From positions 3,497 through 67,496 of the forward strand of contig JANWXI010000002.1 in the NCBI GenBank assembly GCA_025057415.1: a DNA stretch of 64,000 nucleotides, given 5' to 3'. Position numbers and translations under genes: made by a program. Source of the DNA: Chitinophagales bacterium (lineage in GTDB: Bacteria > Bacteroidota > Bacteroidia > Chitinophagales > LD1). A model generated the notes under the pieces. That model saw nothing but the letters and a program-made list of their open reading frames with translations, made no database searches and was not told the origin of the DNA. Below, piece after piece: positions 9,361-62,630 of this stretch (its first letter is position 1; each line of letters starts with the position of its first letter).

Positions 9361-9409
9361 ACCGCAAAATTTGGTGTTAATATACTCAGGAAAAATTAAA
9401 TGTTCTAAA

Positions 9410-11773: not shown

Positions 11774-11869
11774 TGATGGTAGTACATTTAAAACGTGTGC
11801 GCCTGAGCAGCGTAGTTTGTTGAACTTAACGTTGCGCAGCTGCGTAGTTGTGCTTTGAGCGTGCGCCAG

Positions 11870-12021
11870 CCGGGTGAGGGATGCGTAGGGCGCGAGCGCA
11901 GCGAAGCGGCCGCGCCCGTACCATTGATAAAAAAAATTTACGGGCGCGGCGGGAGCGGCAGCGTACCCCGCAGCAAGCCCGACCCCGCTGCCTTGCATGG
12001 CTTGGCAGCGGGGGCACCCCC
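11870..12021 (+). repeat. GC-rich double-hairpin intergenic repeat, copy 1
   Basis: CCGGGTGAGGGATGCG...GGCAGCGGGGGCACCCC aligns by eye along its length with 41315-41440 (same orientation) and 62715-62868 (inverted). It contains a 12-bp central stem (GCCGCGCCCGTA / TACGGGCGCGGC) and a 10-bp terminal stem (CCCCGCTGCC / GGCAGCGGGG). Confidence 0.85.
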
Positions 12022-12083
12022 TAAAAGCAAAAAAATGCATGTACCAGATGTGTATGATTGTATTAAACGTGTATTTTTGGAAT

Positions 12084-14828: not shown

Positions 14829-14831
14829 ACG

Positions 14832-15809: not shown

Positions 15810-15814
15810 GGTGT

Positions 15815-45862: not shown

Positions 45863-45868
45863 CCAAAT

Positions 45869-46729
45869 ATGTTTTTTAAAAATAAAGCCCTTCAACTAAA
45901 ATTTAAACAATTAGGTTACTGTGTTTTTCCTCTAGTAAAGGACCGAGTAGTGCTCAAAAATTTGCACAATTTATTGAATGATAAATTGTCCGAGCATTTA
46001 AAGTGCCCTGATAAATTTAAAGGTACCGGCTGGATAGATGATGCGGAGTTAAGAATCCAAATCAGCAAACAAATTTCCGATATATTGAGCGGACAAATTG
46101 AAGTGCATTTTCAATTATTTCAGGTGTTGGGTTATAATTTTTTACTAAAAGAATCGGATATTGACTCGCGCGTTCCTCCGCATCAGGATTGGACTTATGT
46201 AGATGAAAGTAAATATTATTCTTTCAATCTTTGGTTAGCGTTGGAAGATATACTGCCCGAGGACGGGGCTATTCAAGTATTGCCGTTTTCGCATCGGATT
46301 TTTTCCGGCTATTTGCGACCATCACCTGCATATCCCATACCGTTTGCAGCTTATCGCGATAAACTACTCCCCTTTATGAAGACCATACCGATGAGGGCAG
46401 GTGACTGTATATGCTTTAGCAATGCTGTGGTACATGCATCATTACCTAACACCGGAAGAGGACTCCGTCCGGTAGTAGTATGCACAATATACCCGAAAGA
46501 AGCCACTTTATTACATCATTATGTACATAATATTTCTACTCCCAACGAGGTGGTAGAATATCATATTTCTTCTGAGCAATTCCTTAAAATCAATCGCGGG
46601 CAACCGCCCCAATGTTACATCAATAAGCATTTTCGCCACACCCGTTATCCTGACATTACGTACCAGAAGTTTGTATTAATTTGGTATGCACAACTTTATA
46701 TGTATAAATTAAACAAAGTTTTTGTGTAA
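45869..46729 (+). CDS. PhyH-family Fe(II)/2OG dioxygenase
   Basis: HxD in RVPPHQDWTYVDE and distal His in NAVVHASLPN. Confidence 0.75.
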   Translation: MFFKNKALQLKFKQLGYCVFPLVKDRVVLKNLHNLLNDKLSEHLKCPDKFKGTGWIDDAELRIQISKQISDILSGQIEVHFQLFQVLGYNFLLKESDIDSRVPPHQDWTYVDESKYYSFNLWLALEDILPEDGAIQVLPFSHRIFSGYLRPSPAYPIPFAAYRDKLLPFMKTIPMRAGDCICFSNAVVHASLPNTGRGLRPVVVCTIYPKEATLLHHYVHNISTPNEVVEYHISSEQFLKINRGQPPQCYINKHFRHTRYPDITYQKFVLIWYAQLYMYKLNKVFV

Positions 46730-46736
46730 TATCTGA

Positions 46737-48440
46737 ATGATTATACCCTTTACATTTCGTCTATTTACCAAGTGGTTCATTTTCGGCATCATCATCAATA
46801 TTGTTATATGTAATCTTTTACCACCGGTATATGGCGACTACGATTATCTCGGGGCCGCCATTATGAGCGGACAATTGTCTGATGGTTTAGTATTAAAAAC
46901 GTATCACCTGGGATTGTTTCCTGCATCCTGGATGATCGGTATGCTGCATTATTTGGTCCCAACTTGGCCATGGACAGGTATTATTATTCTACTACAATGG
47001 ACTGTGATTTTGGCAAGTATTGCTTGCATGTTGCCGATAGACGAAACCATTGATAAGTACAATACAACTTTGCGAATTCTGCTGTATGTCATTTCATGGT
47101 TAATACTGGCATTAGGATGTTTAATAATTCCATTTCAAGAGTTTTCTGTGACTGGTGTAGGAGTGGTGAGCAGTGCGGTAGGCGCATGGGGCATATACCT
47201 CCATATCACCCGTACTAGTGGGGTAAAAAATATCTGTACGATATTGTTCTTTACACTGCTATGCTTTGGCGGTTATATGTGGCGATGGGAAGCAGGGCTG
47301 GGCGGTACAATACTTTTTGCGATATATGTCTTTTGGTTCGATGATCTTAAAAATGTACTGAAAGGGCTTTTAATACCGGGAATTATTGCTGTAATATTAT
47401 TTATCGGCATACTGGTCCAGTTGCGCGATCATTATTTTTTTAAGGTAATAGAACCGATGATATTTTATGTTACTGATGCAAGAACACCACCGCCCATTGA
47501 TAGTACCTCTTACAGAAAAATGCTTGCGCAAAGTATCATACGGGCCTCGTTTATATCGGATACTACCATCGTTAACTATAATCATGTTTATGAATTATAT
47601 GTGCGCAAGAAGATGCAAGAAATTAATCAATTAAAAGAGCCATTTAAAACAATTCGACAATCGCTAATAAATATGTCCGGTACCGTAAAAAAATGTAGCG
47701 GCATTAGCTTCGCTTACCTGTATGTTTTTGCTGCAGGTATGATGATTTTAGCGATGTCTGGGAGAAAAAGCGAAGTAATCCGGGTTGTACTGTTCAATCT
47801 GACTGTATGGCTAGTGATTATTCTTACTGCGTATGTGATGAAAATGGAGCCATGGCACTATACACCTATTTTGCAAACTACATTATTGTTTAATCTGGTT
47901 AACGTAATTTTCCCAATAAGCAACAGCGGTAATATTGCGATAATACTAGTACCGGCATTCTTATCTGTAATTAACTTCGGTAATTTCTATCATATGTGGA
48001 AAAAAGAACAACAGGAAATATTAACCAAAAAAGTCGCCAGGAGCAAATTTATTAGACCATCTGTTCCGTATGTATTTATAGATGTAGATACGAAAGATAT
48101 TCTGGATGATAGAGTGTTTACTCCTATGAAGTTACCTGCCAACATATATTTTTATGATTTAGGTCAACTGACCCATTTGACTCCTTTTAAAAATAAACTT
48201 TCGAAAGCTTGTAATTGCAATTTTTATCACGCAGATGAATTTTTCCGGTTTGTGGACAGTAAATCGGACTCAATCCTATATGTTTCTACTGCCCAAAGAG
48301 TACAACTTATCAATTTACTTACGACTGAGTTTTATCAGATGCGCTTGCTTTTCACTGCCGTTGACTCTGCTAATGTTACAGTTGGCACGCAGGAAATACC
48401 TGTAATTTATGCATTCAAAGTCAAGGTGATTTCTTCATAA
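46737..48440 (+). CDS. Polytopic membrane protein with soluble C-terminal domain (unknown family; paralog of 27277..28932)
   Basis: 567 aa with the same helix/loop/C-terminal-domain layout as the 551-aa protein. Blocks in the central loop (SFISDTTIVNY vs SFFFTDTAQY) and at the C-terminus align by eye. Confidence 0.5.
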   Translation: MIIPFTFRLFTKWFIFGIIINIVICNLLPPVYGDYDYLGAAIMSGQLSDGLVLKTYHLGLFPASWMIGMLHYLVPTWPWTGIIILLQWTVILASIACMLPIDETIDKYNTTLRILLYVISWLILALGCLIIPFQEFSVTGVGVVSSAVGAWGIYLHITRTSGVKNICTILFFTLLCFGGYMWRWEAGLGGTILFAIYVFWFDDLKNVLKGLLIPGIIAVILFIGILVQLRDHYFFKVIEPMIFYVTDARTPPPIDSTSYRKMLAQSIIRASFISDTTIVNYNHVYELYVRKKMQEINQLKEPFKTIRQSLINMSGTVKKCSGISFAYLYVFAAGMMILAMSGRKSEVIRVVLFNLTVWLVIILTAYVMKMEPWHYTPILQTTLLFNLVNVIFPISNSGNIAIILVPAFLSVINFGNFYHMWKKEQQEILTKKVARSKFIRPSVPYVFIDVDTKDILDDRVFTPMKLPANIYFYDLGQLTHLTPFKNKLSKACNCNFYHADEFFRFVDSKSDSILYVSTAQRVQLINLLTTEFYQMRLLFTAVDSANVTVGTQEIPVIYAFKVKVISS

Positions 48441-49278
48441 CCTCCTCGCGATGCTTCAAATATGCATCTTCTGAGAAACTCAAGGGTAAATGGGGAAGAT
48501 ACTTTACAAATATAGAGTCATCGGGCGGCACAGATAGGCGAAATTCCCCTGAGAGAAAGATATTTCGCTTGTGTTCGTATAGCGCCGCCTGTTTACCCGG
48601 AGGATTATCTTTAAAATAGTAAACTGTCACCAACGGAGCACTTTTGTCAATTATTTTTGATACTACAGCTACGCGCAACTTTGTTGACAGGTTTCTCTCT
48701 GTACAATGTAATATTCGGTTGTCAAACAAAAGAGCTTCACCGGATTTCATAGGAAAACACACGCTGTGTTTACGTATGGTTTCTTCATAACCTGCAAACG
48801 GACAAGGCATCGTAAAGGTGTAATAATCTACCATGTTTCGAGTAGCTAGGTCTAAACACAGCATTCCGGTATGTTCATCAATGTCACATAATGGTATCCA
48901 TAACGCCATGTTGTTCAGGTGTCTGTACGTCATGGTCGGGTCGATATGGAAATTAAGATAACTGTCATTTCCCGGTTTTTTTATAATAAATATGGAGCAA
49001 ACAATTTCGAAGTTCTCCAAAGCATTTGACAATGGTTCACCTATTACTGATAGTATCTCCTGGTTGATTTTTTTAATATGATGGGCTGGTTCGGTAGCAA
49101 TTGTATCATACAGTAGGGGCAAATTGTCCGGATTAAAATTTGTATAGAATATTCTCAGAAGTTTACCTATTTGTTCCTCGTTGAGTAAGGGGATAATAGT
49201 TGCGCCCGAAGAGAAATATTGATGATTGTTACCGATGTTTTTTATGCGTATGCCGGATTGTAAATAAATTAATGACAC
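48421..49278 (-). CDS. PhyH-like Fe(II)/2OG dioxygenase
   Basis: HxD in LNFHIDPTMTY and distal His in DNRILHCTERN. Confidence 0.6.
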   Translation of the reverse strand: MSLIYLQSGIRIKNIGNNHQYFSSGATIIPLLNEEQIGKLLRIFYTNFNPDNLPLLYDTIATEPAHHIKKINQEILSVIGEPLSNALENFEIVCSIFIIKKPGNDSYLNFHIDPTMTYRHLNNMALWIPLCDIDEHTGMLCLDLATRNMVDYYTFTMPCPFAGYEETIRKHSVCFPMKSGEALLFDNRILHCTERNLSTKLRVAVVSKIIDKSAPLVTVYYFKDNPPGKQAALYEHKRNIFLSGEFRLSVPPDDSIFVKYLPHLPLSFSEDAYLKHREEVMKKSP

Positions 49279-50864: not shown

Positions 50865-51247
50865 ATATGCTTGAAAAATACCTTTGGATAATATACATAT
50901 CAATATCTTTATTAATCGGTGAATTTCACCCGTTTTCACTGTACAAGATGTATAACGCTTTTCCTGACAATGCCACAATCATTGTAGTAAAAAATGCCGA
51001 ATCGCATTTTATTCCCATAAGGGAACATTTACGTTGTCGTTCGGCTGATCTTACGCACAAATACTATGCGTATCGAAAACATTACGGTCAATCGGACTCA
51101 GCAGCTTTAGAATATTTATGCAAACAGCTACACACATATCGTATCTCTGCAATGCAAAGTGATTTACGATTGTGTCTCTTGAATCTTTATAAAATTCCAA
51201 ATCAGATTACTACAGAAACATTTTGCCGGCATGAAGCATGTCGCTGA
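50861..51247 (+). CDS. Hypothetical small protein with one N-terminal hydrophobic helix
   Basis: 128-aa ORF that overlaps the upstream rSAM gene by 4 nt and the downstream membrane-protein gene by 17 nt. No family recognised. Confidence 0.45.
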   Translation: MNMLEKYLWIIYISISLLIGEFHPFSLYKMYNAFPDNATIIVVKNAESHFIPIREHLRCRSADLTHKYYAYRKHYGQSDSAALEYLCKQLHTYRISAMQSDLRLCLLNLYKIPNQITTETFCRHEACR

Positions 51248-52094
51248 TTTATCAGATAGTGAAATAACGCTTTTTTGGTTCACTATTCGTTTATCATGGA
51301 GTGTAATACTTTGTGCTACATTAACCATATTTCTATTTCAGAGTAATCAGAATTTTTACCCCGAAGGTATTTTCCGATTTGTACCGATGAGTTTTTCGCT
51401 GCCGGTTTGGATGAAGGTATTAGCATCTATAATTATAAACGGTTGCGGGGTTGTGTATGTGTTGAACCGCAACATGAAATTGGTTGTGACTGTCTTAGCC
51501 GTATTGTCCTTTTTTGTTGTTTCATATCATGAGGCCAACGGCATTTATGCCCGCGCCACCATTCTGACAGCAATATGTATCGGACAAGCCATAGCTTTTT
51601 ATCAGAATGAGCGTAACTACCCGAATTCTGTAGCTTATAAAGCTATTAATTACTCAGTACAAATGATTGCTGCCGGCTACGTTTTGGCGGGCATTTCCAA
51701 GATTTATGAGTCAGGTTTAGGTTGGTTTTTAGATGTTGAGGGCTTTTGCCTGCAAATAATGAAAAATTTTTACTTTTTATATGCTGACACAGGGAATTCG
51801 GAATACCTGAATTACGCACAATCTATATATAACATTTTCTCCAATTATCCGTGGGTACCTGCTGCGATGTTGTTTGCTGCACTGCTGCTGGAGTTATTTT
51901 GTTTTGTGGTGGTTTATATGCCAAAACTTACCGTATGGTGGGGCATCGGTTTGCTGCTGATGCACCTGGGGATAGCTGTTCTGATGGGGATCGGTATTAG
52001 TGTGATCGCATTTCCGATGGTAATATTTTTTATTAACCCCGTGTATTATATCATTAGAGGGATTAAGAAACTTTCGGAGTGTAATGTCGTATAA
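51231..52094 (+). CDS. Polytopic membrane protein (unknown; possibly HTTM/DoxX-like)
   Basis: 287 aa with about 7 hydrophobic helices. The family assignment is only an impression. Confidence 0.45.
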   Translation: MKHVADLSDSEITLFWFTIRLSWSVILCATLTIFLFQSNQNFYPEGIFRFVPMSFSLPVWMKVLASIIINGCGVVYVLNRNMKLVVTVLAVLSFFVVSYHEANGIYARATILTAICIGQAIAFYQNERNYPNSVAYKAINYSVQMIAAGYVLAGISKIYESGLGWFLDVEGFCLQIMKNFYFLYADTGNSEYLNYAQSIYNIFSNYPWVPAAMLFAALLLELFCFVVVYMPKLTVWWGIGLLLMHLGIAVLMGIGISVIAFPMVIFFINPVYYIIRGIKKLSECNVV

Positions 52095-53019
52095 GTTCAA
52101 GCATTTCTTTTTCTGAGTAATCAAAGTATTTGTATGGCACTATCTCTTTTCTCCATAAAGTTTCATCCGGTTTGGAAATAAAATCATACGTGTAATAAAA
52201 CTCTTCCGTCACATAATATTTTTCGATTTGGTCAAGAGGCAGTTCCGGGTTACGGAAATAATACACCAACTGGTAGTTCTTACGTAGTACCGTCATGGTA
52301 ATGGCGTGACGGATTTCTGTACCGAGGTTGGGAGCGCTGGCATGGATACAAGCCGGGTCAAAAACAATCACATCACCCTTTTTGACGGTAACGGGGTGAG
52401 CATGCTTATAAAGTATAGGTATATAATTTTTGAACTGCCAGGGAACACCTAAGCTGCGTTGGGTATTACCCCACAGATGGCTGCCACTTACAAAAGATAC
52501 AACACCGTTTTCCATAGTTACATCGCAAAAGGGTATCCATACAAACAGGCAATAGTCGCTCTCTTCATCTATTACAGTAGAGTCCTGATGTATCAATAAG
52601 TCGCTGTTGGGATGAGGGGGTTTTACCTGAAAGGCGCCCCCGGTGTGTGTATCGGTTTTTTGCATATCAAACAAACGGGGCAGAATTACCGGGGCTAATT
52701 CATTGATTACCTGCTGTACTTTTTTCCGTATTTCAGGATTAAAAAGCCGTCCGCTGTTGAGCAAATGCTTATCTAATTCAAATCCGTCCAACTTTGAAAT
52801 TTCATCAAATGTTTGCATAAATCTGTCTATTTCATCCTGGCGGATTACCTGCTCAATTTTCACCCAACCGTACTGCAAGTATTTTGCGTGATGGTCGTCA
52901 TTGATAAAAAAACTATCCATGCGGATACGGTAATATTTATTCTCCTGCAAGGTTGGCAGACGGAGAGATGGTTTAAATATTTTTGTAATATAATTGATCA
53001 TTTTTGTAATTAACTCCAA
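52063..53019 (-). CDS. PhyH-family Fe(II)/2OG dioxygenase
   Basis: HxD in DLLIHQDSTVIDE and distal His in DPACIHASAPN. Confidence 0.75.
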   Translation of the reverse strand: MELITKMINYITKIFKPSLRLPTLQENKYYRIRMDSFFINDDHHAKYLQYGWVKIEQVIRQDEIDRFMQTFDEISKLDGFELDKHLLNSGRLFNPEIRKKVQQVINELAPVILPRLFDMQKTDTHTGGAFQVKPPHPNSDLLIHQDSTVIDEESDYCLFVWIPFCDVTMENGVVSFVSGSHLWGNTQRSLGVPWQFKNYIPILYKHAHPVTVKKGDVIVFDPACIHASAPNLGTEIRHAITMTVLRKNYQLVYYFRNPELPLDQIEKYYVTEEFYYTYDFISKPDETLWRKEIVPYKYFDYSEKEMLELIRHYTPKVS

Positions 53020-53837
53020 AAATATATACTTTTTTCATCTGTTGACAATGCTGCGAAACCACCCAATGTCACCCGCTCAGTGTCATGTGCTGCCGGTGGA
53101 ATAACTTTATGCCAATAGGTGCCTCCTTTAAACATCAATAAGCTGCCTGCCGGAGTTTCCACTACTTCATGTTTCATGGCTTCTTCAGCTATAATATTGC
53201 CGTTCGGGTCTTTTATGGTAAACTGACCTTCTTTAATGCAATTATCATAAATGCTGTCAGCCACCCATAGCTCACCCCCCTTGGACGGATTCCGCAAAGT
53301 GAAGTACCAGCTCAACATCGTATCTGGTAATATGTGTTGCCCTATCAAATTTCCCACTTCTTCGTGTATATAGGGCAACAGTTTACCGTCCTGATGCAAG
53401 TATAACCCTCCCTTGCCGGGTAACACTACCCGAAAACTATATGGCAAGAAACCTTGTAGAGGTCTTAGCTCAAAGGGTTTAAAATACATATAAATTTTAT
53501 TGACAATCCAACGGGTTACATCCGTGTTGCCCGCTTCATCTGCAGCATTCAGGAACGGTATTATGGTGTTAAAATAACGTTGTACTTCCTCCTTGGGTTT
53601 TGACCGATAAACAGAACCAAAAAGATAAGGAACAGAGTATCCATTGCCGTAATTGAGGTCAGCTATAAAATTTTCAGATGTGCGGTTCAGTATATTGAAT
53701 AAAAAATCAATATCATCAACCGATAATATATCCTCAACCACATAACCCGTAACTTCACATTGGATAATATGCCTTACATTGAATGGTGCATTACCATTCC
53801 GATGCGTGAATCGTTCAAAACGCAACATGTGATACAA
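53010..53837 (-). CDS. 2OG-Fe(II) oxygenase (prolyl-4-hydroxylase-like)
   Basis: HxD in GLYLHQDGK, distal His in GGTYWHKVIP and a downstream RVTLGGF (2OG-binding Arg context). Confidence 0.6.
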   Translation of the reverse strand: MYHMLRFERFTHRNGNAPFNVRHIIQCEVTGYVVEDILSVDDIDFLFNILNRTSENFIADLNYGNGYSVPYLFGSVYRSKPKEEVQRYFNTIIPFLNAADEAGNTDVTRWIVNKIYMYFKPFELRPLQGFLPYSFRVVLPGKGGLYLHQDGKLLPYIHEEVGNLIGQHILPDTMLSWYFTLRNPSKGGELWVADSIYDNCIKEGQFTIKDPNGNIIAEEAMKHEVVETPAGSLLMFKGGTYWHKVIPPAAHDTERVTLGGFAALSTDEKSIYFWS

Positions 53838-55500
53838 ATGTTGGTATATTACTGTTTAAGTGCCGTATTATTTCTTCATCGGTAATATCCAAAACTCTTT
53901 TAGGGACTTTGCGAATAACGTTTCCGAGTGGCTTACTCCCCGCCGCCAGGTCATCTAATCTGCCGAAGAGGTCATCCTCTGTTAATACATACTCATATAT
54001 GTGACTGTTTTCATGGTGATAATATACAGTTGGCGCTTCTTTGTGGCAAATGGCTGCCACAACAGCTACCCGTTCCTGATGACTGTGGTTCACACCCGAT
54101 CCGTGAAACAAGGCAGGGTGATACAGGACTACATCTCCGGGTTCGGCAGTGATTTCAATTACCCGATCACGTAATGGTTCAAAGGGGACAAAGCGAATAG
54201 GACAAGTACCTGAGCGATAGTTATGAAAAACTAAATGGGAACGCGGTATAACCGCGAGTGTGCCATTATGAGGCGAAACAGCTTGCAAAGGTATCCAGCA
54301 ATGAATGACCCCATATAACTCTTCCGGCACTATACTCCAGTCCTGATGCAAATTGAACAGACCGTCCGCTCCTGGCGTCTTGGCCGCATAATGACCTATG
54401 AGGGGTCTTATATTAACAAAATAGTTCTGTAAAAGGGGCTTGATGCAACTAAAAATCATTTCGCTGTGGCGCTTGTTAGTTTGAACATTTCGCTCATAAT
54501 GATGCGTTACAAACATGCCAGGTCCGGTAGTAAAATGACGATGGTAATTTTCTTTTAACTGTTCTATGATACTTGTGTCAAGCGCTCCACGAATATGTAC
54601 GTAACCCTCCAATTGAAATGTACGATGTGGCTCATCACTGCACAGAAGCCGATGAGTAAAACGATTTGAACGCCATGCCGCTTTTACTTCTGATACTTCG
54701 GGTGACATTTCCTCATGTGCGAATGTTTCTACGAGTTTCGATTCCTGTGGCAAGTGTGTATGGTATGTTCTGCTTAACATATCGCGAAAAGCCGCGGGTG
54801 TAAGTTGATATGCTCTGATTTCGTTGTCAAATCGTATGTAGTGATATATGGGGGATTTCTGATGTTTTAATATCAAGCGGAGCGCTGTAAAATCTACATT
54901 GGCCTGGTTAAGTTTTAAACAGTGAAATATTGCCTGGTGATAAGCCAGACACTGACCCGCCTCCATCGGCAGGTCGGTTCGCATTTCTTTTGGAATTTGC
55001 TCAAAAGGAATTCTGATTGTTTCCGAATTAGAAGAACGTATGCTCTCAATACCCTGATGTGTTCCTTCCAATAAAGCCATACAACCGTTCCCTTTGCATG
55101 TATCATTAAGCGGAATAAAACAGGTGATAAACGCATGTTCTTTCTCGTTGGTGTAACTCCATTCCTGGCGATAGGCATATTCCTCTAAAGTGTCTGCCTG
55201 ATGGATTAAATGCGCACTGTCAATTATTTCAAATTTTTCAAAATGTAACTCAAGGGCTGCACGAATAATTTCGATTGTTTCGTTTTCCAGATTTATTGGT
55301 CGGAATGCATCCGAAGCTACAGCATTATCGTTCAATACGTTAAAGTTGTGTGTTCTAATACTCACCTCTTTATGAAATGAGCTGAAAACTTCGCGTAATT
55401 TGGTCAACTGCAGGTCGTTCAACAGAGGTAGTAACACATATCCTTTTCCCAGAAATTCACATTCGGTCTTTTTATTTTTGAAAGGAGTTAACATAATCAA
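53815..55500 (-). CDS. Tandem di-domain PhyH-like protein (N-terminal domain with degenerate metal triad)
   Basis: 561 aa made of two PhyH-like halves. The C-terminal half has NLHQDWSIVPEE and LFHGSGVN. At the equivalent position the N-terminal half has YRQEWSYTNEKE (H->R, D->E), with IFHCLKLN retained. Confidence 0.65.
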   Translation of the reverse strand: MIMLTPFKNKKTECEFLGKGYVLLPLLNDLQLTKLREVFSSFHKEVSIRTHNFNVLNDNAVASDAFRPINLENETIEIIRAALELHFEKFEIIDSAHLIHQADTLEEYAYRQEWSYTNEKEHAFITCFIPLNDTCKGNGCMALLEGTHQGIESIRSSNSETIRIPFEQIPKEMRTDLPMEAGQCLAYHQAIFHCLKLNQANVDFTALRLILKHQKSPIYHYIRFDNEIRAYQLTPAAFRDMLSRTYHTHLPQESKLVETFAHEEMSPEVSEVKAAWRSNRFTHRLLCSDEPHRTFQLEGYVHIRGALDTSIIEQLKENYHRHFTTGPGMFVTHHYERNVQTNKRHSEMIFSCIKPLLQNYFVNIRPLIGHYAAKTPGADGLFNLHQDWSIVPEELYGVIHCWIPLQAVSPHNGTLAVIPRSHLVFHNYRSGTCPIRFVPFEPLRDRVIEITAEPGDVVLYHPALFHGSGVNHSHQERVAVVAAICHKEAPTVYYHHENSHIYEYVLTEDDLFGRLDDLAAGSKPLGNVIRKVPKRVLDITDEEIIRHLNSNIPTFVSHVAF

Positions 55501-56324
55501 ACGAATGGTTTTTGAATATCTGAAAGTGATAAATCTTCGGGGCGAATTGGTTGGAAGATAAAATCACTAATCGTATGTATGGGGGTATGAGTTTCAAAAA
55601 AGCTGCTGCTCTCAAAACGGAGCATTTCCTCTATAGAATCTATGACAAACTCGTAAAATGTCTTATCTCCCTCGTTCTTAGCAATAAAAATCTTTACTTT
55701 CTGGTGGTTTGGCACCATTATCAAAGTAGCTGCAATGCGCGGTGATGCCGAAGCATTAGCAGAGGATAAATGCAGTAAACGATGGTCATATACGATGGCC
55801 TCTCCGGCTTTTAATGGTACATATTGTACAAATCGGTCAGCAATTTCCCGTGCATACTTTCGATAAGTATCGGTAATGTTAATTCCCCGTATTTGATTGA
55901 CTACCCGGTGTGAACCCGGCACAAGTCCCAAAGTTGAGTTTTGCTGATCCGTGTCAGATAACGGCGCCCAGATGTTAAGTGATATATCTGTCTCCTCGTT
56001 CACATATCGCCAATCGGCATGTAGCGGCATCTCCGGCTCTCCGGGTGGTTTTGTAAAAAAATTACCCCAGAAGGGAATATGATATCGAAATAAATTTTCA
56101 ATAGCGGGTCGAAAAATTTCTTTGATGCCCTCATCCACTTTTTTGCGGTAAGTATAATCTTGGCGCATGAATGTGGTAAAAGGAGCTTTTGTAGAACTAT
56201 GAATCTCTGCGTAAAGATTTTTCAGCCGTTTAATATGTGGTTCCGGTAATAAACGGATTTTTACATAACCGAGTTCTGACAATGCGGTGTTTAGCTTGTC
56301 ATCGAAAAAAACATTGTGTATCAT
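55497..56324 (-). CDS. PhyH-family Fe(II)/2OG dioxygenase
   Basis: HxD in PLHADWRYVNEE and distal His in RLLHLSSAN. Confidence 0.75.
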   Translation of the reverse strand: MIHNVFFDDKLNTALSELGYVKIRLLPEPHIKRLKNLYAEIHSSTKAPFTTFMRQDYTYRKKVDEGIKEIFRPAIENLFRYHIPFWGNFFTKPPGEPEMPLHADWRYVNEETDISLNIWAPLSDTDQQNSTLGLVPGSHRVVNQIRGINITDTYRKYAREIADRFVQYVPLKAGEAIVYDHRLLHLSSANASASPRIAATLIMVPNHQKVKIFIAKNEGDKTFYEFVIDSIEEMLRFESSSFFETHTPIHTISDFIFQPIRPEDLSLSDIQKPFV

Positions 56325-57172
56325 AAAACAGGGTGCAATTCACTTTTGTGCACTTCCTTTTCTAACCATTGTATAATTTGCTGTTGTGTCAGCAGCGGAG
56401 GCGAGTAAGAGAACTTTTTGTATATGGGGAAACGGTGATCCTGATTACCCCATGCGTTTTCAAAAAAGAAAGTATAGGGAACTTCATATACCGTTACCAT
56501 GTTATCCGAAGGGCTATGGTAGTAGTAATACAGTTTCGCTTCCGGGTGTAACAATCCAAAATGTACTACGGGTCTGGGGTGTTTTGACCGGTTATCAGGA
56601 GAACCATGTAGTACTTTGTCGCCATAAACCACTAAATCCCCTGCTTTGGCATCTATAACATCGCAATATTTCAGTAGCATCGGCTCATATTCCAGATATG
56701 GCCAAACAGTATTGTGGGGCAACGGGTAATCAAAAAACTTATGACTTTTTCTTAAAACGTAAAGTTGCCCGTTTTCAGGTGTAGTATCAACTATCGGTAA
56801 CCAGATGTTTTGATAGGAAAACTCCGGTTCATCTTGCACACTGAAATCGCGGTGTAAGGTCACAGTGCTTTTTTCATTTGGGTTTTTGACTAGAAAAGTC
56901 GCAGCAGGGCACACATAGTTGGTAATATGCTCATCTAAGCGGGGCTTAACGATTTTAAGTATCTGGTCGCTGAGGTTAGCTGAAACATCATGGGGGATGT
57001 CGCATAAACTGTTCCACATGGTGGACGGCCAACCCTCACGAGGGTAATGTTGCTCAAATAACAAGCGAAGTTGCGTGATTTCGTCCCTGTTGAGCACGTT
57101 GCGGAGTAATACATATCCGTTTTCTTCATAACTTTCCTGTACGGCGGGGTCAATAAAGCGGGCAGTTTTCAT
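56321..57172 (-). CDS. PhyH-family Fe(II)/2OG dioxygenase
   Basis: HxD in TLHRDFSVQDE and distal His in DKVLHGSPDN. Confidence 0.75.
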   Translation of the reverse strand: MKTARFIDPAVQESYEENGYVLLRNVLNRDEITQLRLLFEQHYPREGWPSTMWNSLCDIPHDVSANLSDQILKIVKPRLDEHITNYVCPAATFLVKNPNEKSTVTLHRDFSVQDEPEFSYQNIWLPIVDTTPENGQLYVLRKSHKFFDYPLPHNTVWPYLEYEPMLLKYCDVIDAKAGDLVVYGDKVLHGSPDNRSKHPRPVVHFGLLHPEAKLYYYYHSPSDNMVTVYEVPYTFFFENAWGNQDHRFPIYKKFSYSPPLLTQQQIIQWLEKEVHKSELHPVL

Positions 57173-57267
57173 ATATTCATATTTTTATCAATGTAATTTT
57201 ACGATAAAATTATCGCTACCGCTAATATAGCAATTTGATTTTTATTTTTCTATTTGCATTAGATGAT

Positions 57268-58287
57268 ATGCGTCATTCCATTAATATGCACGTATGTTTG
57301 GCCGGTTACGGTTACTGGGGGAAAAACCTCCTCCGCAACCTCATTGAAACCCTTAGCGCTGACCGTATCAGTGTTGCAGAAATTATGCCCGAAAAGCGCG
57401 CTCAACTTAAACGACAATACCCTAATATTACCTGTTACGACTCTTTTGAAGATGCATTAGCTCAAAACCACAGCGCTGCCTTTGTAATCGCAACCGAAAC
57501 ACGCTACCATTATGACCATGCCCGCAAAGCGCTCCTCGCCGGCAAACACGTACTGGTAGAAAAACCCCTTACTACTTCCGTGGCGCAGGCAAAAGAGCTG
57601 TGCCGCATTGCAAAAGAGCGTGGGCTTATCTTAATGGTTGACCACATTTTCCGTTATCATCCGGTAGTGTGGAAAATGAAGGAATACTTCCGGGAAGATT
57701 ATCTCGGCCCCATTCATTATATGGATGCCACACGGGTAAACCTGGGTATTTATCAGGAAGATGTCAACGTACTTTGGGATCTTGCCTGTCACGACCTGAG
57801 TATTATCCAGTTTTTAGTTAATGAAAAACCTACATCGGTGAGAGCCATCGGCCGCATCAACCCTGAGCACGGCTCTGAAGACGTTGCTTACCTGTTTCTT
57901 TATTATCCATCCGGCATGCTGGTACAAATAAATTCTTCCTGGGCAAGTCCGGTAAAAATCCGCAAGATGATAGTGGGCGGTGAAAAACGCATGATGATTT
58001 ATGACGATATAGAGCCCACCAACAAACTCACCATTTATGAGTACGAGCCAAACATCCAACGCGATGAAAACAAAACCAAACTTACGGACTATCGCCTCGG
58101 AAATATCATTATCCCGAAAATTGAGCAGGGCGAAGCTCTGCGAAATGTAATCGTTGAGTTTTTGGAGTGTATTCAATGTGCGAAACAACCCGCTTCAGAC
58201 GGTTACAACGCCCTGGAAATCATCAATATTTTAGAAAAAGCACAACAATCTTTATCATTGGACGGAGCTATTGTCCCTTTACCTTGA
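57268..58287 (+). CDS. Gfo/Idh/MocA-family NAD(P)-dependent sugar oxidoreductase
   Basis: Rossmann N-terminus HVCLAGYGYWGKNLLRNL, plus the HVLVEKPL and FRYHP blocks typical of the family. Start uncertain: ATG 57268 or 57286 rather than the listed TTG 57235. Confidence 0.8.
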   Translation: MRHSINMHVCLAGYGYWGKNLLRNLIETLSADRISVAEIMPEKRAQLKRQYPNITCYDSFEDALAQNHSAAFVIATETRYHYDHARKALLAGKHVLVEKPLTTSVAQAKELCRIAKERGLILMVDHIFRYHPVVWKMKEYFREDYLGPIHYMDATRVNLGIYQEDVNVLWDLACHDLSIIQFLVNEKPTSVRAIGRINPEHGSEDVAYLFLYYPSGMLVQINSSWASPVKIRKMIVGGEKRMMIYDDIEPTNKLTIYEYEPNIQRDENKTKLTDYRLGNIIIPKIEQGEALRNVIVEFLECIQCAKQPASDGYNALEIINILEKAQQSLSLDGAIVPLP

Positions 58288-58979
58288 ACTACTCGTTTAT
58301 TATCTTTTGTTACAATGAAGAACACAACCTTATCCGTGTATATGAGCGGTTGAAAGCATTTTGCTCTCGTAGTCATTCAGAGCACGAAATCATTATTGTG
58401 GATGACGGTAGCACGGATGGTACTCCGGACATATGTAAAAAGTTAAAAGAAGAAAACCCGGGTATAATAGTGATTACTCATGCCGTTAATGCTGGTATAG
58501 GATTGGCATTGCGGAGTGGTTACGAAGCTGCTACACGCGAATACGTATGCGCCATTCCGGGCGATGGACAATTCGATATTGAGGAGTTGAATGCCGTACG
58601 TCCCTTTACAAAAGAAACATTCTACTCCTTCTACCGCCCGCAAACTAATTACAACTCATATCGCAAACTACTCACCTGGTTGAATCGTCTTTTTAATCAA
58701 CATATTCTTGGGCTTTACCTTCGCGATGTGAACTGGGTAAAAGTTTACCGCCGCGAGCATTTGATGATAACAGCGCCTGTGTTAAGAAGTTCTCTGATTG
58801 AAAGTGAAATATGTGCCAAGCTAAATCGAATGGGCATCATGCCCATAGAAATTCCATCGGTATATCATCCCCGCCAATCCGGCAAAGCAAAAGGGGGCAG
58901 CTGGAATACGCTTCGCAAAGCCCTTGCCGAAACGCTCAAATTATGGTGGTTAGTAGTTACATTTAAACCCCGAAAATGA
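58284..58979 (+). CDS. Family 2 glycosyltransferase (polyprenyl-phosphate sugar synthase-like)
   Basis: YSFIIFCYNEEHNL...IIIVDDGSTDGT...IPGDGQFD. The start is proposed at TTG 58284, which overlaps the upstream TGA (TTGA). The listed upstream 39 codons overlap the oxidoreductase gene. Confidence 0.75.
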   Translation: MNYSFIIFCYNEEHNLIRVYERLKAFCSRSHSEHEIIIVDDGSTDGTPDICKKLKEENPGIIVITHAVNAGIGLALRSGYEAATREYVCAIPGDGQFDIEELNAVRPFTKETFYSFYRPQTNYNSYRKLLTWLNRLFNQHILGLYLRDVNWVKVYRREHLMITAPVLRSSLIESEICAKLNRMGIMPIEIPSVYHPRQSGKAKGGSWNTLRKALAETLKLWWLVVTFKPRK

Positions 58980-59803
58980 AACTCGCCCTCGCCCAACTCC
59001 TTGTGGAAGGAACTGAGCCCGAGCGCAACTTTGAGCGTGCCGAAAAGCTTATCGCCCGCGCAGCTTCTGCCGCCTGCCAGCTCACCCTGCTGCCCGAAAC
59101 AATCGACTTCGCCTGGACACACCCCGATGGCATCCGCCACGCAAAACCCATCCCCGGTGAATACAGCGACCACTTTTGTCTGTTGGCAAAAAAATATAAT
59201 ATGTGGATTTGCGTGGGGTTGACTGAAAAAACTTCGCATGGCAACTACAATACAGCCGTATTAATTGACAACAACGGCAACCTTGTCGGTCTGCACCGAA
59301 AAATCAATCTCCTTACGGTAGAGTTTCCGTACTACCTCGTGGGCCAGAAGTTAGAGGTTTACGATACTCCATTTGGGAAAATAGGCATGAATATTTGTGC
59401 CGATAATTATCTGGATGCCTTAGATATAGGCCATGTGCTTGCGCGCATGGGCGCGCAGCTCATCCTCTCTCCGTCTTCATGGACAGTCAACCACTCGGTA
59501 ACTGAAGCTGAAGACCCCTATCGCGATAAATGGATAAAACCCTTCAGCGTGCTCGCCAGGGCACACGGGCTGGTGATAGCCAGCGCCACGAGCGTGGGAT
59601 ACATCGTGGGCGGCCCGTACGAAGGAAAGAAAATGGTGGGTTGTTCCCTGTGTGTAGGCCCGCAAGGGATAATCGCACAAGGCATGTTCAACGAGTTTGC
59701 CGGTGATTTAGCCATTGCCGAATTCGACATGCCACAGCGCCCGCTCAAAGGCACCCAAATCGGTGAAGCATTGCGCAGTCAGGGCTTTAAGTTCTATAAT
59801 TGA
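58976..59803 (+). CDS. Carbon-nitrogen hydrolase (nitrilase superfamily)
   Basis: Glu-Lys-Cys triad contexts: LTLLPET, GLHRKINL and GMNICADN. Confidence 0.8.
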   Translation: MKLALAQLLVEGTEPERNFERAEKLIARAASAACQLTLLPETIDFAWTHPDGIRHAKPIPGEYSDHFCLLAKKYNMWICVGLTEKTSHGNYNTAVLIDNNGNLVGLHRKINLLTVEFPYYLVGQKLEVYDTPFGKIGMNICADNYLDALDIGHVLARMGAQLILSPSSWTVNHSVTEAEDPYRDKWIKPFSVLARAHGLVIASATSVGYIVGGPYEGKKMVGCSLCVGPQGIIAQGMFNEFAGDLAIAEFDMPQRPLKGTQIGEALRSQGFKFYN

Positions 59804-59806
59804 CGC

Positions 59807-61003
59807 ATGAGTGAGGGGGTTATTGTTAATGGCATACTTAAGAAAATCCCGTACCGGCGCTGTGTGCGCTGCATCAGCGACACTACTTGTCCCGGCATCA
59901 CCTTCGATAATAACGGAGTGTGCAACTTTTGCCACCTGCACGACAAGTGGTGTCGCATGTATCCGAATGACGAGCGCGGGCAGCAAATCTGGAACAACAC
60001 GCTAAAGAAAATTAAGCGCGATGGGCGTGGCAAAAAATACGATTGCATCGTGGGCATCAGCGGGGGCCGCGATAGTTCGTATGTGCTTCACCTTGCGGTT
60101 ACCAAATACCAACTGCGCCCCCTGGCTGTTCACTTCAACGATGGCTTCGACAACCCCGTGGCGGGCGAAAATATGGTAAACATCACCCGCAAACTGGGCG
60201 TGGACCTGCGCACCATCACCAGCGACTGGCGCGAAGCCAAAGACCTGAAAATCTCTTTCCTGAAAGCGAGCGTGCCCGACCTTAACCAGGGCACCGATGT
60301 AGGCATTGCAGCCGCCTGTTACGGAGTGGCATGCAAAGAAGGTTTAAAACACATCATCTACGGGCAATCGTTCCGCACCGAAGGTATAAAACCCATAAGC
60401 TGGGCGTATATGGTGGGCGATTACCTCAACGATGTGCAAAATAAATTCGGAACCGTAAAGCTGCGCCCCTGGAAGCCCGAAGACCCCAACTATCATTTCG
60501 GGTGGAAACAACTCTTCTATTACAGTTTCATAAAAGGCATTCGCGCATACTCTCCGTTGTATTACGAGAAATACATCCGCCGCGAGGCAGAAGAAATTTT
60601 AAAGCGCGAGTACAATTGGGTGTATCCGGGTGCGCATTACTACGATGATTTATACTGGTCGCTGATTACCTATGTTCACCGCGTAAAATTCAACATTGAC
60701 TTTCGCCTCAACGCATACAGCGCTCTTATTCGCGATGGACAAATGGACCGCGACTGGGCGCTGGAGGCCGTCAAAAAACCCTATGTGATGGAAGACCCGC
60801 GCATCATAGACCTTTGCCTGAAACGCCTTGCCGTTTCGCGCGAGGATTTTGAAGCATGGCTGCGCCTGCCCCCTAAAACCTTCCGCGATTACAACACCGG
60901 CTATTCACTGATGTGGCGCCTGCGCCCGCTCATCAAGCTCATCAGCAAGCTGGGCTTTTTCCCCGAAATTGTTTACGACAAATACTTTTTGTGTGGCGAA
61001 TGA
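59807..61003 (+). CDS. N-acetyl-sugar amidotransferase (WbpG-like PP-loop ATPase)
   Basis: N-terminal Cys pairs CVRCISDTT...GVCNFCHLHD. PP-loop CIVGISGGRDSSY. The overall length is typical of the LPS-biosynthesis WbpG family as I recall it. Confidence 0.75.
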   Translation: MSEGVIVNGILKKIPYRRCVRCISDTTCPGITFDNNGVCNFCHLHDKWCRMYPNDERGQQIWNNTLKKIKRDGRGKKYDCIVGISGGRDSSYVLHLAVTKYQLRPLAVHFNDGFDNPVAGENMVNITRKLGVDLRTITSDWREAKDLKISFLKASVPDLNQGTDVGIAAACYGVACKEGLKHIIYGQSFRTEGIKPISWAYMVGDYLNDVQNKFGTVKLRPWKPEDPNYHFGWKQLFYYSFIKGIRAYSPLYYEKYIRREAEEILKREYNWVYPGAHYYDDLYWSLITYVHRVKFNIDFRLNAYSALIRDGQMDRDWALEAVKKPYVMEDPRIIDLCLKRLAVSREDFEAWLRLPPKTFRDYNTGYSLMWRLRPLIKLISKLGFFPEIVYDKYFLCGE

Positions 61004-62630
61004 AAAATACATCTTAGGCATCAACGGAGGCGTGCGCCCCGGTTATCAGGACGTATCGGCTGTGCTCTTGCGCGGCGGCAGCATCGTAGCCGCTGTGGAG
61101 GAAGAGCGCCTCAACCGCATCAAGCACGCCCCGGGCCAATTGCCCATACTCGCTGTAAAAGAAGTGTTACGCATTGCGGGCATACATATCACCGATGTTT
61201 CTACACTCGCATTTCACGGCAGCACCTGGCAGCCGGCTATTGAAGACATATTAAAAAATCATTTCACAAGTTATTTCGGCCATTGTCCCCCCATCCGGCG
61301 CTTTCATCATCACGATTGCCACGCGGCATCGGCTTACTACGCCTCGGGTTTTGACGAAGCCCTCATCCTCACCGTTGACGGCTCCGGTGACGGCATCAGT
61401 ACCCAGGTAGCTGTTGGCAGGCACGGTACGCTGCAAGTGCTCGAACGCTACGCCCGCCCGCAGAGTTTGGGTTTGTTTTATTCTATGATAACACAGATCT
61501 GCGGCTTCACACGTGATATGGACGAGTACAAACTCATGGGCTTAGCCGCCTTTGGTAAACCAACTCCCGAACGGCTGGAGGCGCTGCTGCAAATCACCGA
61601 TAGCGGCTATCGCCTCAACGAAGCATACCTCGTACCTATCCTTCCCGGCCAACCCGGTCCCTCGCGCTACGAAATGCTCTACACTGAAAAATTGCTCCAA
61701 CTCACAGGCACAAAACGCAGAACCGATACACACATCACAGATGAATACAAAAACCTGGCCGCCTCGGCACAATTCTTACTGGAGCAGGCGCTGTGTGCCA
61801 TTGTAAAAAAATATGTGCGCGAAACCGGCATCCGAAAAATCTGTATGGCAGGAGGCGTAGCGCTCAATTGCCTCGCCAACATGAAAATTGAACAACTACA
61901 CGAAGTAGATGAACTGTTCATTCAGCCCGCCGCAAGCGATGCGGGCATATCGCTCGGGGCAGCGTACCTTGCCGCGGCAGAGCAGGGCATCACACAGTTT
62001 GAAAAACAAACCCACGTGTTTTACGGCAGCGAATACAGCGATGATGAAATTGCCCGTGTGCTGCAAAGCTGCGCCTGCAAAGCCCAACGCGAACCCGACA
62101 TCACCGATGCTGCTGCCCGGGCGCTCGCGCAAAAAAAAGTCATCGGATGGTTCCAGGGGCGCATGGAGTTTGGTCCCCGCGCCCTCGGCAACCGCAGCAT
62201 CCTGGCAGACCCGGCAACACCCGACATACAATCTATCGTCAACCAAAAAATCAAATTCCGCGAGAGCTTCCGCCCCTTTGGCGCAAGCGTCCTGCAGGAC
62301 GACTTCCACCGCTACTTCATCGCCAGATGCACCGAAGCGCCATACATGACAAAAGTTTTTCATGTAAAAGAACCATACCGCGCGCTCCTGCGCGGCGTGA
62401 CCCATGCCGATGGCACCTGCCGCGTCCAAACCGTCACCGACAGCCAAAATCCCCTCTACGCCCGCCTGCTGCGCGCCTTCAAATCCCTCACCGGCCACAG
62501 CGTACTCCTCAACACCAGCTACAACCTCAGCCACGAACCCATCGTCTGCACCCCGCGCCACGCCATCGCATCCTTCTGCGCCAGCGGCTTAGACGAACTC
62601 TTCCTTGGCACATACCGCCTCACAAAATAA
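60993..62630 (+). CDS. NodU/CmcH-family carbamoyltransferase
   Basis: ILGINGG...DVSAVLL...VAAVEEERLNRIKH N-terminus, HHHDCHAASAYY, and C-terminal MEFGPRALGNRSILADP and NTSYNL blocks. Start is either GTG 60993 or TTG 60969. Confidence 0.85.
   Translation: MANEKYILGINGGVRPGYQDVSAVLLRGGSIVAAVEEERLNRIKHAPGQLPILAVKEVLRIAGIHITDVSTLAFHGSTWQPAIEDILKNHFTSYFGHCPPIRRFHHHDCHAASAYYASGFDEALILTVDGSGDGISTQVAVGRHGTLQVLERYARPQSLGLFYSMITQICGFTRDMDEYKLMGLAAFGKPTPERLEALLQITDSGYRLNEAYLVPILPGQPGPSRYEMLYTEKLLQLTGTKRRTDTHITDEYKNLAASAQFLLEQALCAIVKKYVRETGIRKICMAGGVALNCLANMKIEQLHEVDELFIQPAASDAGISLGAAYLAAAEQGITQFEKQTHVFYGSEYSDDEIARVLQSCACKAQREPDITDAAARALAQKKVIGWFQGRMEFGPRALGNRSILADPATPDIQSIVNQKIKFRESFRPFGASVLQDDFHRYFIARCTEAPYMTKVFHVKEPYRALLRGVTHADGTCRVQTVTDSQNPLYARLLRAFKSLTGHSVLLNTSYNLSHEPIVCTPRHAIASFCASGLDELFLGTYRLTK

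Follow-up and report, generated by a model that had tools for sequence, protein, structure and literature searches.

Why does a bacterium keep five oxygenase genes head to tail on one strand, and on what do their products act? The question is raised by a 64,000-nucleotide stretch (hereafter the window) of the genome of a Chitinophagales bacterium (GenBank assembly GCA_025057415.1, contig JANWXI010000002.1, positions 3,497 to 67,496), in which genes for five Fe(II)/2-oxoglutarate (2OG) oxygenases, O1 to O5, lie at positions 52063-57172. We lean, by a little, towards the reading that this array is a module of a Wzm/Wzt-linked supercluster, devoted almost entirely to tailoring and found in one Chitinophagales genus and a few relatives, which modifies an exported envelope glycoconjugate, such as a sugar polymer or glycolipid of the cell surface. 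The gene structure and catalytic residues, the orthology of the array positions and the gene context bear on this reading, and are described below with the alternatives.

The oxygenase array and its active sites

The array consists of the following features, given in the order of transcription.

57173..57234, no strand assigned: intergenic region of 62 bp, AT-rich, between O1 and a divergent operon
56321..57172, minus strand: O1, 283 amino acids (aa), PhyH-family Fe/2OG oxygenase, opening the putative operon
55497..56324, minus strand: O2, 275 aa, PhyH-family oxygenase
53815..55500, minus strand: O3, 561 aa, fused double PhyH protein
~54646-55500, minus strand: N-domain of O3, a degenerate PhyH domain
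~53815-54645, minus strand: C-domain of O3, an intact PhyH domain
53010..53837, minus strand: O4, 275 aa, WelO5-family Fe/2OG oxygenase
52063..53019, minus strand: O5, 318 aa, PhyH-family oxygenase, closing the putative operon

A preliminary description of this DNA had placed five minus-strand genes here without accessory genes between them. A mechanical list of open reading frames (ORFs) reproduced the five coordinates exactly, and between O1 and O5 it holds only three short embedded ORFs (82-90 aa). The overlaps of 4 to 23 nt claimed for neighbouring genes agree with the mechanical values (4, 4, 23 and 10 nt), but three of the four rest on TTG starts; O2 begins with an ATG overlapping the stop codon of O1 (4 nt). 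Orthologue N-termini and a public gene call (559 aa) place the probable start of O3 at the ATG at 55494; the protein is then 559 aa long, and a gap of 2 nt separates O3 from O2. O4 probably starts at the ATG at 53828, overlapping O3 by 14 nt, and this 14-nt overlap recurs in three other genomes (four in total). O5 may start at 53001, leaving a gap of 8 nt to O4. Whichever starts are chosen, the five genes are spaced by 14 nt or less. All five ORFs are intact, and we infer that this operon-like array is co-transcribed. The 62-bp intergenic region is presumed to be a promoter region shared with the divergent operon, an arrangement also present in three related loci (L010, L019 and L023). A promoter and terminator scan of positions 51000-58000, with models that do not cover Bacteroidota promoters, gave matches at chance level (16 versus 19.3 expected and 9 versus 6.3 expected). 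At its other end the array converges on a membrane-protein gene (51231-52094), the 3' end of which overlaps that of O5 by 32 nt.

Four of the five proteins belong to the PhyH family (PF05721): O1, O2, O3 and O5 scored 64.2, 61.8, 102.6 (in two stretches) and 81.3 bits, respectively, against a gathering cut-off of 22 (E = 2.7e-17 for O1, 1.5e-16 for O2 and 1.6e-22 for O5; range for the four proteins 1e-16 to 5e-29). The proposed membership in the PhyH/2OG cupin superfamily is borne out consistently by Pfam profiles, by sequence and profile searches of the PDB (matches for the array include PhyH, MysH, SnoK, AviO1/EvdO2 and KanJ), and by structure prediction with Foldseek. The iron-binding triad H-x-D/E...H was found in O1 (H107-R-D109 and H189), O2 (HAD...H), the C-domain of O3 (HQD385 and H466) and O5 (HQD144...H). 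The arginine that binds the C5 carboxylate of 2OG follows the distal His by ~10-11 residues in the same four domains (R200 in O1, R477 in O3) and in 76 of 77 related PhyH domains from the source genome and its relatives; the full H-D-H triad plus Arg occurs in 71 of the 77. In an alignment of the seven PhyH domains of the window, HxD, the distal His, a conserved Asn and the 2OG Arg are present in all but the N-half of O3. The preliminary description had assigned HxD...H to every domain of the array; this holds, together with the 2OG Arg, for five of the six, which appear to be active by their residues, and fails for the O3 N-domain, which has RQE and a Phe.

O4 does not belong to the PhyH family. 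It matches WelO5 (PF22814) with 86 bits against a cut-off of 27 (E = 4.1e-24), and the match extends over residues 18-275 of 275 and profile positions 13-277 of 277. The carrier-protein-independent halogenases WelO5 and AmbO5 carry H-x-G and act in indole alkaloid biosynthesis, whereas O4 carries H-x-D and is encoded in a putative glycoconjugate cluster. O4 is predicted to be hydroxylase-type rather than halogenase-type, because in an alignment of the C-terminal half to WelO5-type structures its HQD stands opposite the halogenase HVG, and because all of its orthologues, each encoded directly behind O3, have HxD. A second WelO5-family paralogue, encoded at positions 15495-16397 of L024 (the same gene is found in L025), carries V-H-C-G-K at the triad, which is the H-x-G motif of halogenases. 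Given this paralogue, some versions of the supercluster may halogenate.

For the array itself, a halogenase reading is ruled out by HxD in all intact domains and in O4. The HxG/A variant occurs in none of the 77 related PhyH domains, and the array matches the NCBIfam family TIGR01762 ('chlorinating enzyme') with only 24-30 bits against a cut-off of 226. The earlier contrast between hydroxylase and halogenase types therefore survives for HxG/A, which is absent from the 77 domains and the O4 orthologues. A single substrate common to all five enzymes is not assured, nor is hydroxylation in the strict sense as the outcome. With sugars as substrates, the nearest relatives form orthoesters (HygX), epimers (SnoN) or C-C bonds (SnoK), or yield ketones through deamination (KanJ); the reactions of these structural relatives are oxidative cyclisation, epimerisation, C-C coupling and deamination (PMC13374393).

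The N-half of O3 reads Y-R-Q-E-W where the other PhyH domains of the window show L-H-x-D-W, and a Phe replaces the 2OG Arg. Thus, three key residues have changed (H to R, D to E and R to F), and only the distal His of the triad is retained. Among 13 O3 orthologues, including the window copy, which were drawn from 5.8 billion proteins, H109, D111 and R202 are retained in 12; the window copy is the sole exception. The identity of the window O3 to its orthologues is 29-38% in the N-half and 47-56% in the C-half, against means of 50% in both halves among the other orthologues. The terminal branch of the window copy measures 1.72 for the N-half and 0.38 for the C-half, the medians for the other orthologues being ~0.4 and ~0.5, respectively. 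The N-half has thus evolved about four times faster here than in the orthologues, and the C-half is normal by both identity and branch length. This pattern points to a recent, lineage-specific degeneration restricted to this genome.

An AlphaFold2 model of O3, built on the 13 sequences (559 residues), reached a pLDDT of 85.5 and a pTM of 0.83, and the latter value, for a two-domain chain, would imply a defined packing between the domains. Foldseek returned 399 PDB matches for this model (E <= 0.001), the listed ones being Fe/2OG oxygenases with the cupin (double-stranded beta-helix) fold; the best were HygX (top), MysH, SnoN/SnoK, the TlxI/TlxJ heterodimer, EctD and AndA. TlxI, a catalytically dead subunit that has no 2OG Arg, raises the efficiency of TlxJ ~80-fold (PMC12141560). 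In talaromyolide biosynthesis, both TlxI/TlxJ and TlxA/TlxC (PDB 7VBQ) combine a catalytic PhyH-like subunit with an auxiliary paralogue. The N-half of O3, like TlxI, is devoid of the 2OG Arg, and it lacks the first His as well. Nevertheless, the Tlx proteins are fungal, act on meroterpenoids and are separate polypeptides, whereas the halves of O3 are fused in one chain known from its sequence and a model; unlike in a Tlx-type pair, moreover, the degeneration is specific to one genome, as 12 of the 13 orthologues keep both active sites. By this analogy, and given the covalent fusion, the lost residues and the model, the N-half would most likely be a non-catalytic, TlxI-like auxiliary partner of the C-half. 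A separate truncation affects the opposite half in another genome (G005): its O3 orthologue (L019, 10482-11576) ends at 364 aa, so that the catalytic C-terminal domain is truncated.

Orthology of the array positions and a second array

The paralogues O1 to O5 share 19-30% pairwise identity, and only short chance repeats were found across the array at the DNA level. In a tree of the 77 PhyH domains, O1, O2, the N- and C-halves of O3, O5 and the genes A1 to A5 of a second array (see below) each form a strongly supported clade of their own; that of O1 comprises 5 rows and has 100% support. Orthologues of O1 (61-70% identity) were found in six loci (L019, L020, L021, L022, L023 and L024), and those of O2 are 41-53% identical, with none in L024. 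O5 has an orthologue in L020 (72% identity), where it precedes O1 instead of trailing O4, and is missing or replaced in L010, L023 and L024. All carriers found are metagenome-assembled genomes (MAGs) or metagenome contigs, and their gene orders are listed below (X, a gene preceding O1; unk128 and memb287, the two genes convergent with O5 in the window).

Window, source genome: O1-O2-O3-O4-O5
L010/L021, Chitinophagales MAG JAHCHW01: X-O1-O2-O3-O4, with O1 to O4 at 69, 53, 45 and 46% identity
L023, GCA_006365075: X-O1-O2-O3-O4
L020, CALAYL01: O5-O1-O2-O3-O4, then orthologues of unk128 and memb287 directly downstream on the same strand
L024/L025, JGI metagenomes: O1-O3-O4
L019, Chitinophagales MAG JBKJJB01: O1-O2-O3, truncated
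L022, Chitinophagaceae MAG CAZYXR01: O1 alone

The core of the array is O1-O3-O4; O2, O5 and X are variable modules. Judged from these comparisons, the paralogues are anciently diverged, separately kept and non-redundant, and the suggestion that the operon-like array encodes a family of distinct enzymes has gained support, as each position corresponds to a separate conserved orthologue clade.

Recent tandem duplication is ruled out by the low paralogue identity, the lack of DNA repeats other than short chance ones and the one clade per position. A pseudogene array is likewise ruled out for five of the six domains by the intact ORFs and the catalytic residues present. One might still regard the array as the decaying remnant of gene duplications, most copies of which are redundant or non-functional: the O3 N-domain has lost catalytic residues and evolves fast, O3 is truncated in G005 (L019), and O2 and O5 are missing from some relatives. 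We find this scarcely credible, as (i) all five ORFs are intact, (ii) the catalytic residues are complete in five of the six domains and in orthologues at 41-72% identity, (iii) the divergence and the separate clades of the paralogues indicate old, separately kept genes, and (iv) the tight packing and the 14-nt overlap are conserved.

The source genome, a 3.2-Mb MAG in 196 contigs, encodes 13 PhyH domains at only two loci, namely seven in the window and six on another contig (C167). The latter six belong to a second array of five genes, A1 to A5 (L001, contig C167, 9868-16442), in which A2 is a 653-aa double-domain protein. It lies directly downstream of genes for a Wzm ABC-2 permease, a 939-aa PMT_2/TPR protein of the GT-C (glycosyltransferase fold C) type and a UDP-glucose dehydrogenase, and the contig ends inside or just past A5. 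The order Wzm-A1-A2-A3-A4-A5-GT2 (the last a family 2 glycosyltransferase) is kept in G012 and G024 and partly in G021, at 52-79% identity; a search of the source genome for the continuation of C167 returned, as the sole GT2 homologue, the window's own. A1 (L001, 10770-11693) and its orthologues in L013, L014, L015 and L016 carry H-Q/E-N, with Asn in place of the acidic iron ligand, and keep the distal His and the Arg; this facial triad, shared by the whole A1 clade, is an unusual one.

Matches to O3 (E <= 1e-5) occur in 19 of the 24 other genomes of the genus, 3 to 25 in each and mostly in tandem runs. In an even sample of 200 Bacteroidota genomes, by comparison, 132 are devoid of PhyH and most of the others have 1-3; counts of 11 are otherwise confined to a single additional family within this order, and the maximum outside the order is 6. 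The grouping into arrays is not due to chance, and the PhyH expansion is a hallmark of this lineage. Fusion is frequent as well: A3 and A4 form one 606-aa gene in G011 (L015, 13156-14976), in a library of 1.84 billion representative proteins, some two-thirds of the 150 best relatives have 2-4 PhyH stretches, and relatives with three or four stretches (P0018, P0021, P0027, P0028 and P0094) are 790-1226 aa in length.

The two arrays differ in composition. The GC content is 0.42 in the window cluster (18878-62630) and 0.413 in the O-type array, versus 0.47 in the genome, 0.48 in the flank and 0.481 in the A-type array (10770-16442). The A-type array is also the more conserved of the two across the genus. 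Given both contrasts, the O-type module may be the more mobile or variable one.

Gene context and candidate substrates

The neighbourhood of the array comprises the following features.

57235..62630, plus strand: divergent sugar-modification operon (GFO/IDH/MocA oxidoreductase, GT2, CN-hydrolase, WbuX and NodU/CmcH-type carbamoyltransferase; Pfam)
51231-52094, plus strand: memb287, polytopic membrane protein of 287 aa, convergent with O5
50861-51247, plus strand: unk128, convergent with O5
48421..49278, minus strand: P2, PhyH oxygenase with HID...H (Pfam E = 4.4e-9)
45869..46729, plus strand: P1, PhyH oxygenase (Pfam), paired with a cobalamin (B12)-dependent radical S-adenosylmethionine (rSAM) gene at 44327-45862
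43086..44303, plus strand: Wzt/TagH-type ATP-binding cassette (ABC) ATPase with a C-terminal extension (Pfam ABC_tran)

The divergent operon is conserved together with the array (52-83% identity). Its WbuX N-acetyl-sugar amidotransferase (59807-61003) exceeds the NCBIfam cut-off (TIGR03573, 215.8 versus 203.2 bits), and the other NCBIfam matches of the operon are all below theirs, including the best match of the GFO/IDH/MocA oxidoreductase, a UDP-GlcNAc 3-dehydrogenase. The ABC-2 permease and the Wzt/TagH-type ATPase are encoded with cluster genes, Wzt in the window and Wzm on C167; the best NCBIfam matches of the ATPase are TagH and a galactan Wzt, both below cut-off, as is the equivalog match of Wzm. 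Wzt homologues adjoin arrays in L011, L022, L023 and L024. The ATPase is thus the export component accompanying the oxygenase and radical-SAM genes, and the association of the arrays with Wzt/Wzm, B12-rSAM and sugar-modifying genes is constant. P1 has an orthologue in relatives immediately after O4 on the opposite strand, and P2 has orthologues in L011, L023 and L024.

The array is part of a 44-kb cluster with eight B12-rSAM enzymes (seven with a B12-binding domain above the Pfam cut-off and one just below it), one further radical-SAM protein, three LpxO/OlsC-like hydroxylases, a Cupin_8 (JmjC-like) protein, five SGNH acyl-transfer proteins, UbiA, GT-C-like membrane proteins, a flippase-like protein, a multihaem cytochrome and the Wzt-type ATPase. 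A syntenic supercluster of ~75 kb in G021 adds radical-SAM/SPASM enzymes, a second UbiA, an SAM methyltransferase and an enzyme dependent on pyridoxal phosphate. The preliminary description had overlooked this Wzm/Wzt-linked setting, as well as the degenerate domain, the WelO5-family gene, P1 and P2 in the window, and the second array. B12-rSAM and PhyH genes stand in conserved adjacent pairs or triplets, 0-10 nt apart or overlapping (window 44327-46729; L011 2867-6189; L023 13353-18625), which suggests that methylation and oxidation steps are coupled. It is speculation that such pairs carry out C-methylation and then oxidise the new carbon.

The glycoconjugate setting is supported by WbuX, which is above its cut-off, by the presence of the carbamoyltransferase, GT2, GFO, Wzt, Wzm, UDP-glucose dehydrogenase and GT-C/TPR proteins, and by weak matches of the PhyH proteins to the NCBIfam family TIGR04324 (see below). 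In this setting, the soluble oxygenases would work in the cytoplasm, being devoid of signal peptides and dependent on 2OG, and each, using Fe(II), 2OG and O2, would oxidise a C-H position of its own. The candidate substrates are sugar precursors linked to nucleotides or to polyprenyl phosphate, or the N-acyl, C-methyl or lipid groups that these precursors carry. The resulting envelope glycoconjugate would be exported or flipped and attached outside the cytoplasm. Neighbouring paralogues probably act as hetero-oligomers, with the N-half of O3 as a non-catalytic partner, because neighbouring PhyH genes are often fused (the doubles O3 and A2; A3-A4 in G011). The supercluster would be all tailoring because no scaffold enzyme is visible in the window or in G021.

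Several points weigh against this reading. No obvious polymerising glycosyltransferase or other scaffold enzyme was found in the window or in the 75-kb G021 cluster, so that the acceptor need not be a classical polysaccharide; the glycosyltransferases of the window are one small GT2 and GT-C-like proteins. A search of the G021 supercluster for scaffold genes (contig positions 130-243 kb) found no polymerising glycosyltransferase, polyketide synthase or non-ribosomal peptide synthetase, and an initiating phosphoglycosyl transferase was found in neither the window nor the G021 supercluster, although transferases of both kinds may be encoded elsewhere in the genome. Every NCBIfam oxygenase match of the array lies far below its cut-off, so no curated equivalog is joined. 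The cluster contains LpxO/OlsC-like and UbiA genes, and its ~18 oxygenases would suit a hydrocarbon (lipid, isoprenoid or alkyl) at least equally well, sugars being already oxygenated. Finally, the hetero-oligomer idea derives from gene fusions and a single-chain model.

Part of these points leads to a different target, namely the lipid chain, whether isoprenoid, polyprenyl or acyl, of a glycolipid or other membrane lipid. The oxygenases, together with the B12-rSAM and LpxO/OlsC-like enzymes, would then yield a poly-methylated and poly-hydroxylated lipid, to which the sugar genes add a head group. The cluster encodes three membrane-tailed Asp_Arg_Hydrox proteins with best matches to OlsC and LpxO, both acyl-chain 2-hydroxylases, one UbiA prenyltransferase in the window (two in G021) and, in G021, a CMAS-like SAM methyltransferase; the best matches of the B12-rSAM enzymes include the hopanoid/lipid enzymes HpnJ, HpnR and TIGR04072, all below cut-off. 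An unoxygenated carbon chain would accommodate many oxygenases better than a sugar, and the lack of scaffold glycosyltransferases in the window and the G021 cluster fits as well. Nevertheless, the cluster is without genes that build fatty-acid, polyketide or isoprenoid chains, the most constant neighbours of the array are GFO, GT2, WbuX, the carbamoyltransferase and Wzt/Wzm, and the substrates of the proteins structurally closest to O3 are sugars or small polar molecules; the name PhyH carries no weight here, as the family is chemically very broad. We regard a lipid or isoprenoid substrate as unlikely on balance, although it remains a serious rival, given the lack of a visible scaffold and the oxygen that sugars carry from the start.

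Less likely than the lipid alternative, and doubtful in our view, is a secondary metabolite that diffuses freely, for instance an antibiotic of oligosaccharide or aminoglycoside-like type. The oxygenases would then be late tailoring enzymes comparable to those for orthosomycins, kanamycin or nogalamycin, and Wzt an exporter or self-resistance pump. The closest solved relatives (HygX, AviO1/EvdO2, SnoK/SnoN and KanJ) are natural-product enzymes acting on glycosides (PMC13374393), and the region is low in GC (0.41-0.42 versus 0.47). It is established that pathways to aminoglycoside and oligosaccharide antibiotics typically include B12-rSAM C-methylases and NodU/CmcH-type carbamoyltransferases. 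On the other hand, four GT-C-like membrane transferases, five membrane-anchored SGNH proteins, the flippase-like protein and Wzm/Wzt point to assembly at the outer membrane face. Most species of the genus carry the cluster, with a serotype-like shuffling of modules, and neither a cyclitol synthase nor any other scaffold enzyme was seen in the window or in G021.

The large secreted proteins near the cluster raise the possibility of a peptide or protein target. In G021 (L012, 15437-19918; L028, 1-17997), the cluster is bordered by four giant proteins (1493-2546 aa) of the type IX secretion system (T9SS) type, three of which match the DUF5122 beta-propeller protein of the window, and a 1385-aa relative with a Por_Secre_tail is encoded at 5299-9456 of the window, ~10 kb from the cluster. 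These proteins are possible acceptors for the PMT_2/TPR GT-C enzymes, which resemble protein O-glycosyltransferases. Under a peptide alternative, the target would be such a T9SS protein or the precursor of a ribosomally synthesised and post-translationally modified peptide (RiPP), and the B12-rSAM enzymes would be peptide C-methylases as in proteusins. Combinations of B12-rSAM with Fe/2OG, AspH-like and JmjC/Cupin_8 enzymes occur in peptide-modifying pathways too, and RiPP rSAM families are among the sub-threshold NCBIfam matches. However, a precursor-peptide gene, leader-recognition element, leader peptidase and cyclase were not found, unk128 has no recognisable family, the PhyH proteins are without signal peptides whereas the modification of T9SS cargo takes place outside the cytoplasm, and WbuX, UDP-glucose dehydrogenase and GFO would be left unexplained. 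We judge this alternative very unlikely; it too ranks below the lipid one, as does decay. Its RiPP version is without support, as precursor and leader-processing genes were not found and a Pfam search with a limit of E <= 1 gave no family for either unk128 or memb287.

A few further observations concern the neighbouring genes. The mechanical GTG start of the GT2 gene (58167-58979) gives a 121-nt overlap with the GFO gene; from the length of its orthologues (230-247 aa), the true start is probably near 58284. The CN-hydrolase lies directly before the WbuX (PP-loop) amidotransferase (58976-61003), and the pair is kept in four loci. In glutamine-dependent NAD synthetase, a CN-hydrolase domain is joined to a PP-loop synthetase, and in other O-antigen clusters ammonia is supplied by the HisH/HisF-like WbuY/WbuZ. 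By analogy, the CN-hydrolase may supply ammonia for acetamidino-sugar formation. An Rfam scan of positions 43000-64000 gave no match.

Known oxygenase systems and implications

The closest functional analogues of the array are the multi-oxygenase orthosomycin pathways and the TlxI/J-type heterodimers. In orthosomycin pathways, several paralogous oxygenases of the PhyH subfamily act on oligosaccharides, and each is assigned its own site (PMC13374393). The orthosomycin oxygenases HygX, AviO1, EvdO1 and EvdO2 share the fold and subfamily area of the array enzymes, and AviO1/EvdO2 were recovered by a profile of the array, whereas sequence identity is only 14-20%. Their clusters contain two or three such enzymes, produce a free antibiotic and belong to actinomycetes; here, 5+5+2 genes stand in a Wzm/Wzt-linked envelope cluster of Bacteroidota. 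The triad of HygX is the HxG...E variant, unlike the HxD of O1 to O5, and nothing seen in the array implies orthoester chemistry of the orthosomycin type.

Other known enzymes are more distant. Within the PhyH family, KanJ (kanamycin B dioxygenase) and SnoK/SnoN (nogalamycin) oxidise carbons of sugars, and these enzymes were found by both sequence and structure searches. They produce ketones, epimers or C-C bonds on sugars, not stable new hydroxyl groups, and differ from the array in being distant (profile E of 1e-3 to 1e-18), single enzymes with free small-molecule substrates. The only sugar-context NCBIfam matches of O1, O2, O3 and O5 are TIGR04324 and TIGR04436 ('sporadic carbohydrate cluster 2OG-Fe(II) oxygenase'). 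These two families comprise uncharacterised Fe/2OG oxygenases from within clusters for carbohydrate biosynthesis, where their genes are described as sporadic and single and not as arrays; with 21-27 bits against cut-offs of 150-200, O1 to O5 are not members. Our search of the literature returned nothing relevant on PhyH/2OG oxygenases in O-antigen, Wzt or Bacteroidetes polysaccharide clusters.

The tailoring of small natural products by Fe/2OG oxygenases is well known. In bacterial pathways for surface glycans or glycolipids, to our knowledge, such enzymes are almost unknown. Here, one envelope-associated cluster concentrates 13 PhyH domains, a WelO5-type enzyme, four other oxygenases and eight cobalamin radical-SAM enzymes. 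With no scaffold genes visible, its product chemistry is therefore likely to be one not yet described for bacterial envelopes. It is attractive to speculate, though we hold it to be quite unlikely, that modular hetero-oligomeric PhyH assemblies and B12-rSAM enzymes make new, heavily C-methylated and oxidised (branched, keto or bridged) sugars on polyprenyl-phosphate, that GT-C-like transferases attach them to the surface, and that module shuffling generates surface diversity.

The carriers found so far are all uncultured MAGs, which sets a practical limit. What is new is the scale of 5+5+2 genes in one genome, the envelope-glycoconjugate setting in Bacteroidota, the positional conservation combined with module shuffling, the recurrent fusions of neighbours and the one freshly degenerated domain. 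Conserved position by position, the arrays would offer a set of naturally diversified regiospecific oxygenases, and the fusions of neighbours together with the fresh degenerate domain may serve as a natural series for the origin of catalytic/auxiliary pairs of 2OG oxygenases.

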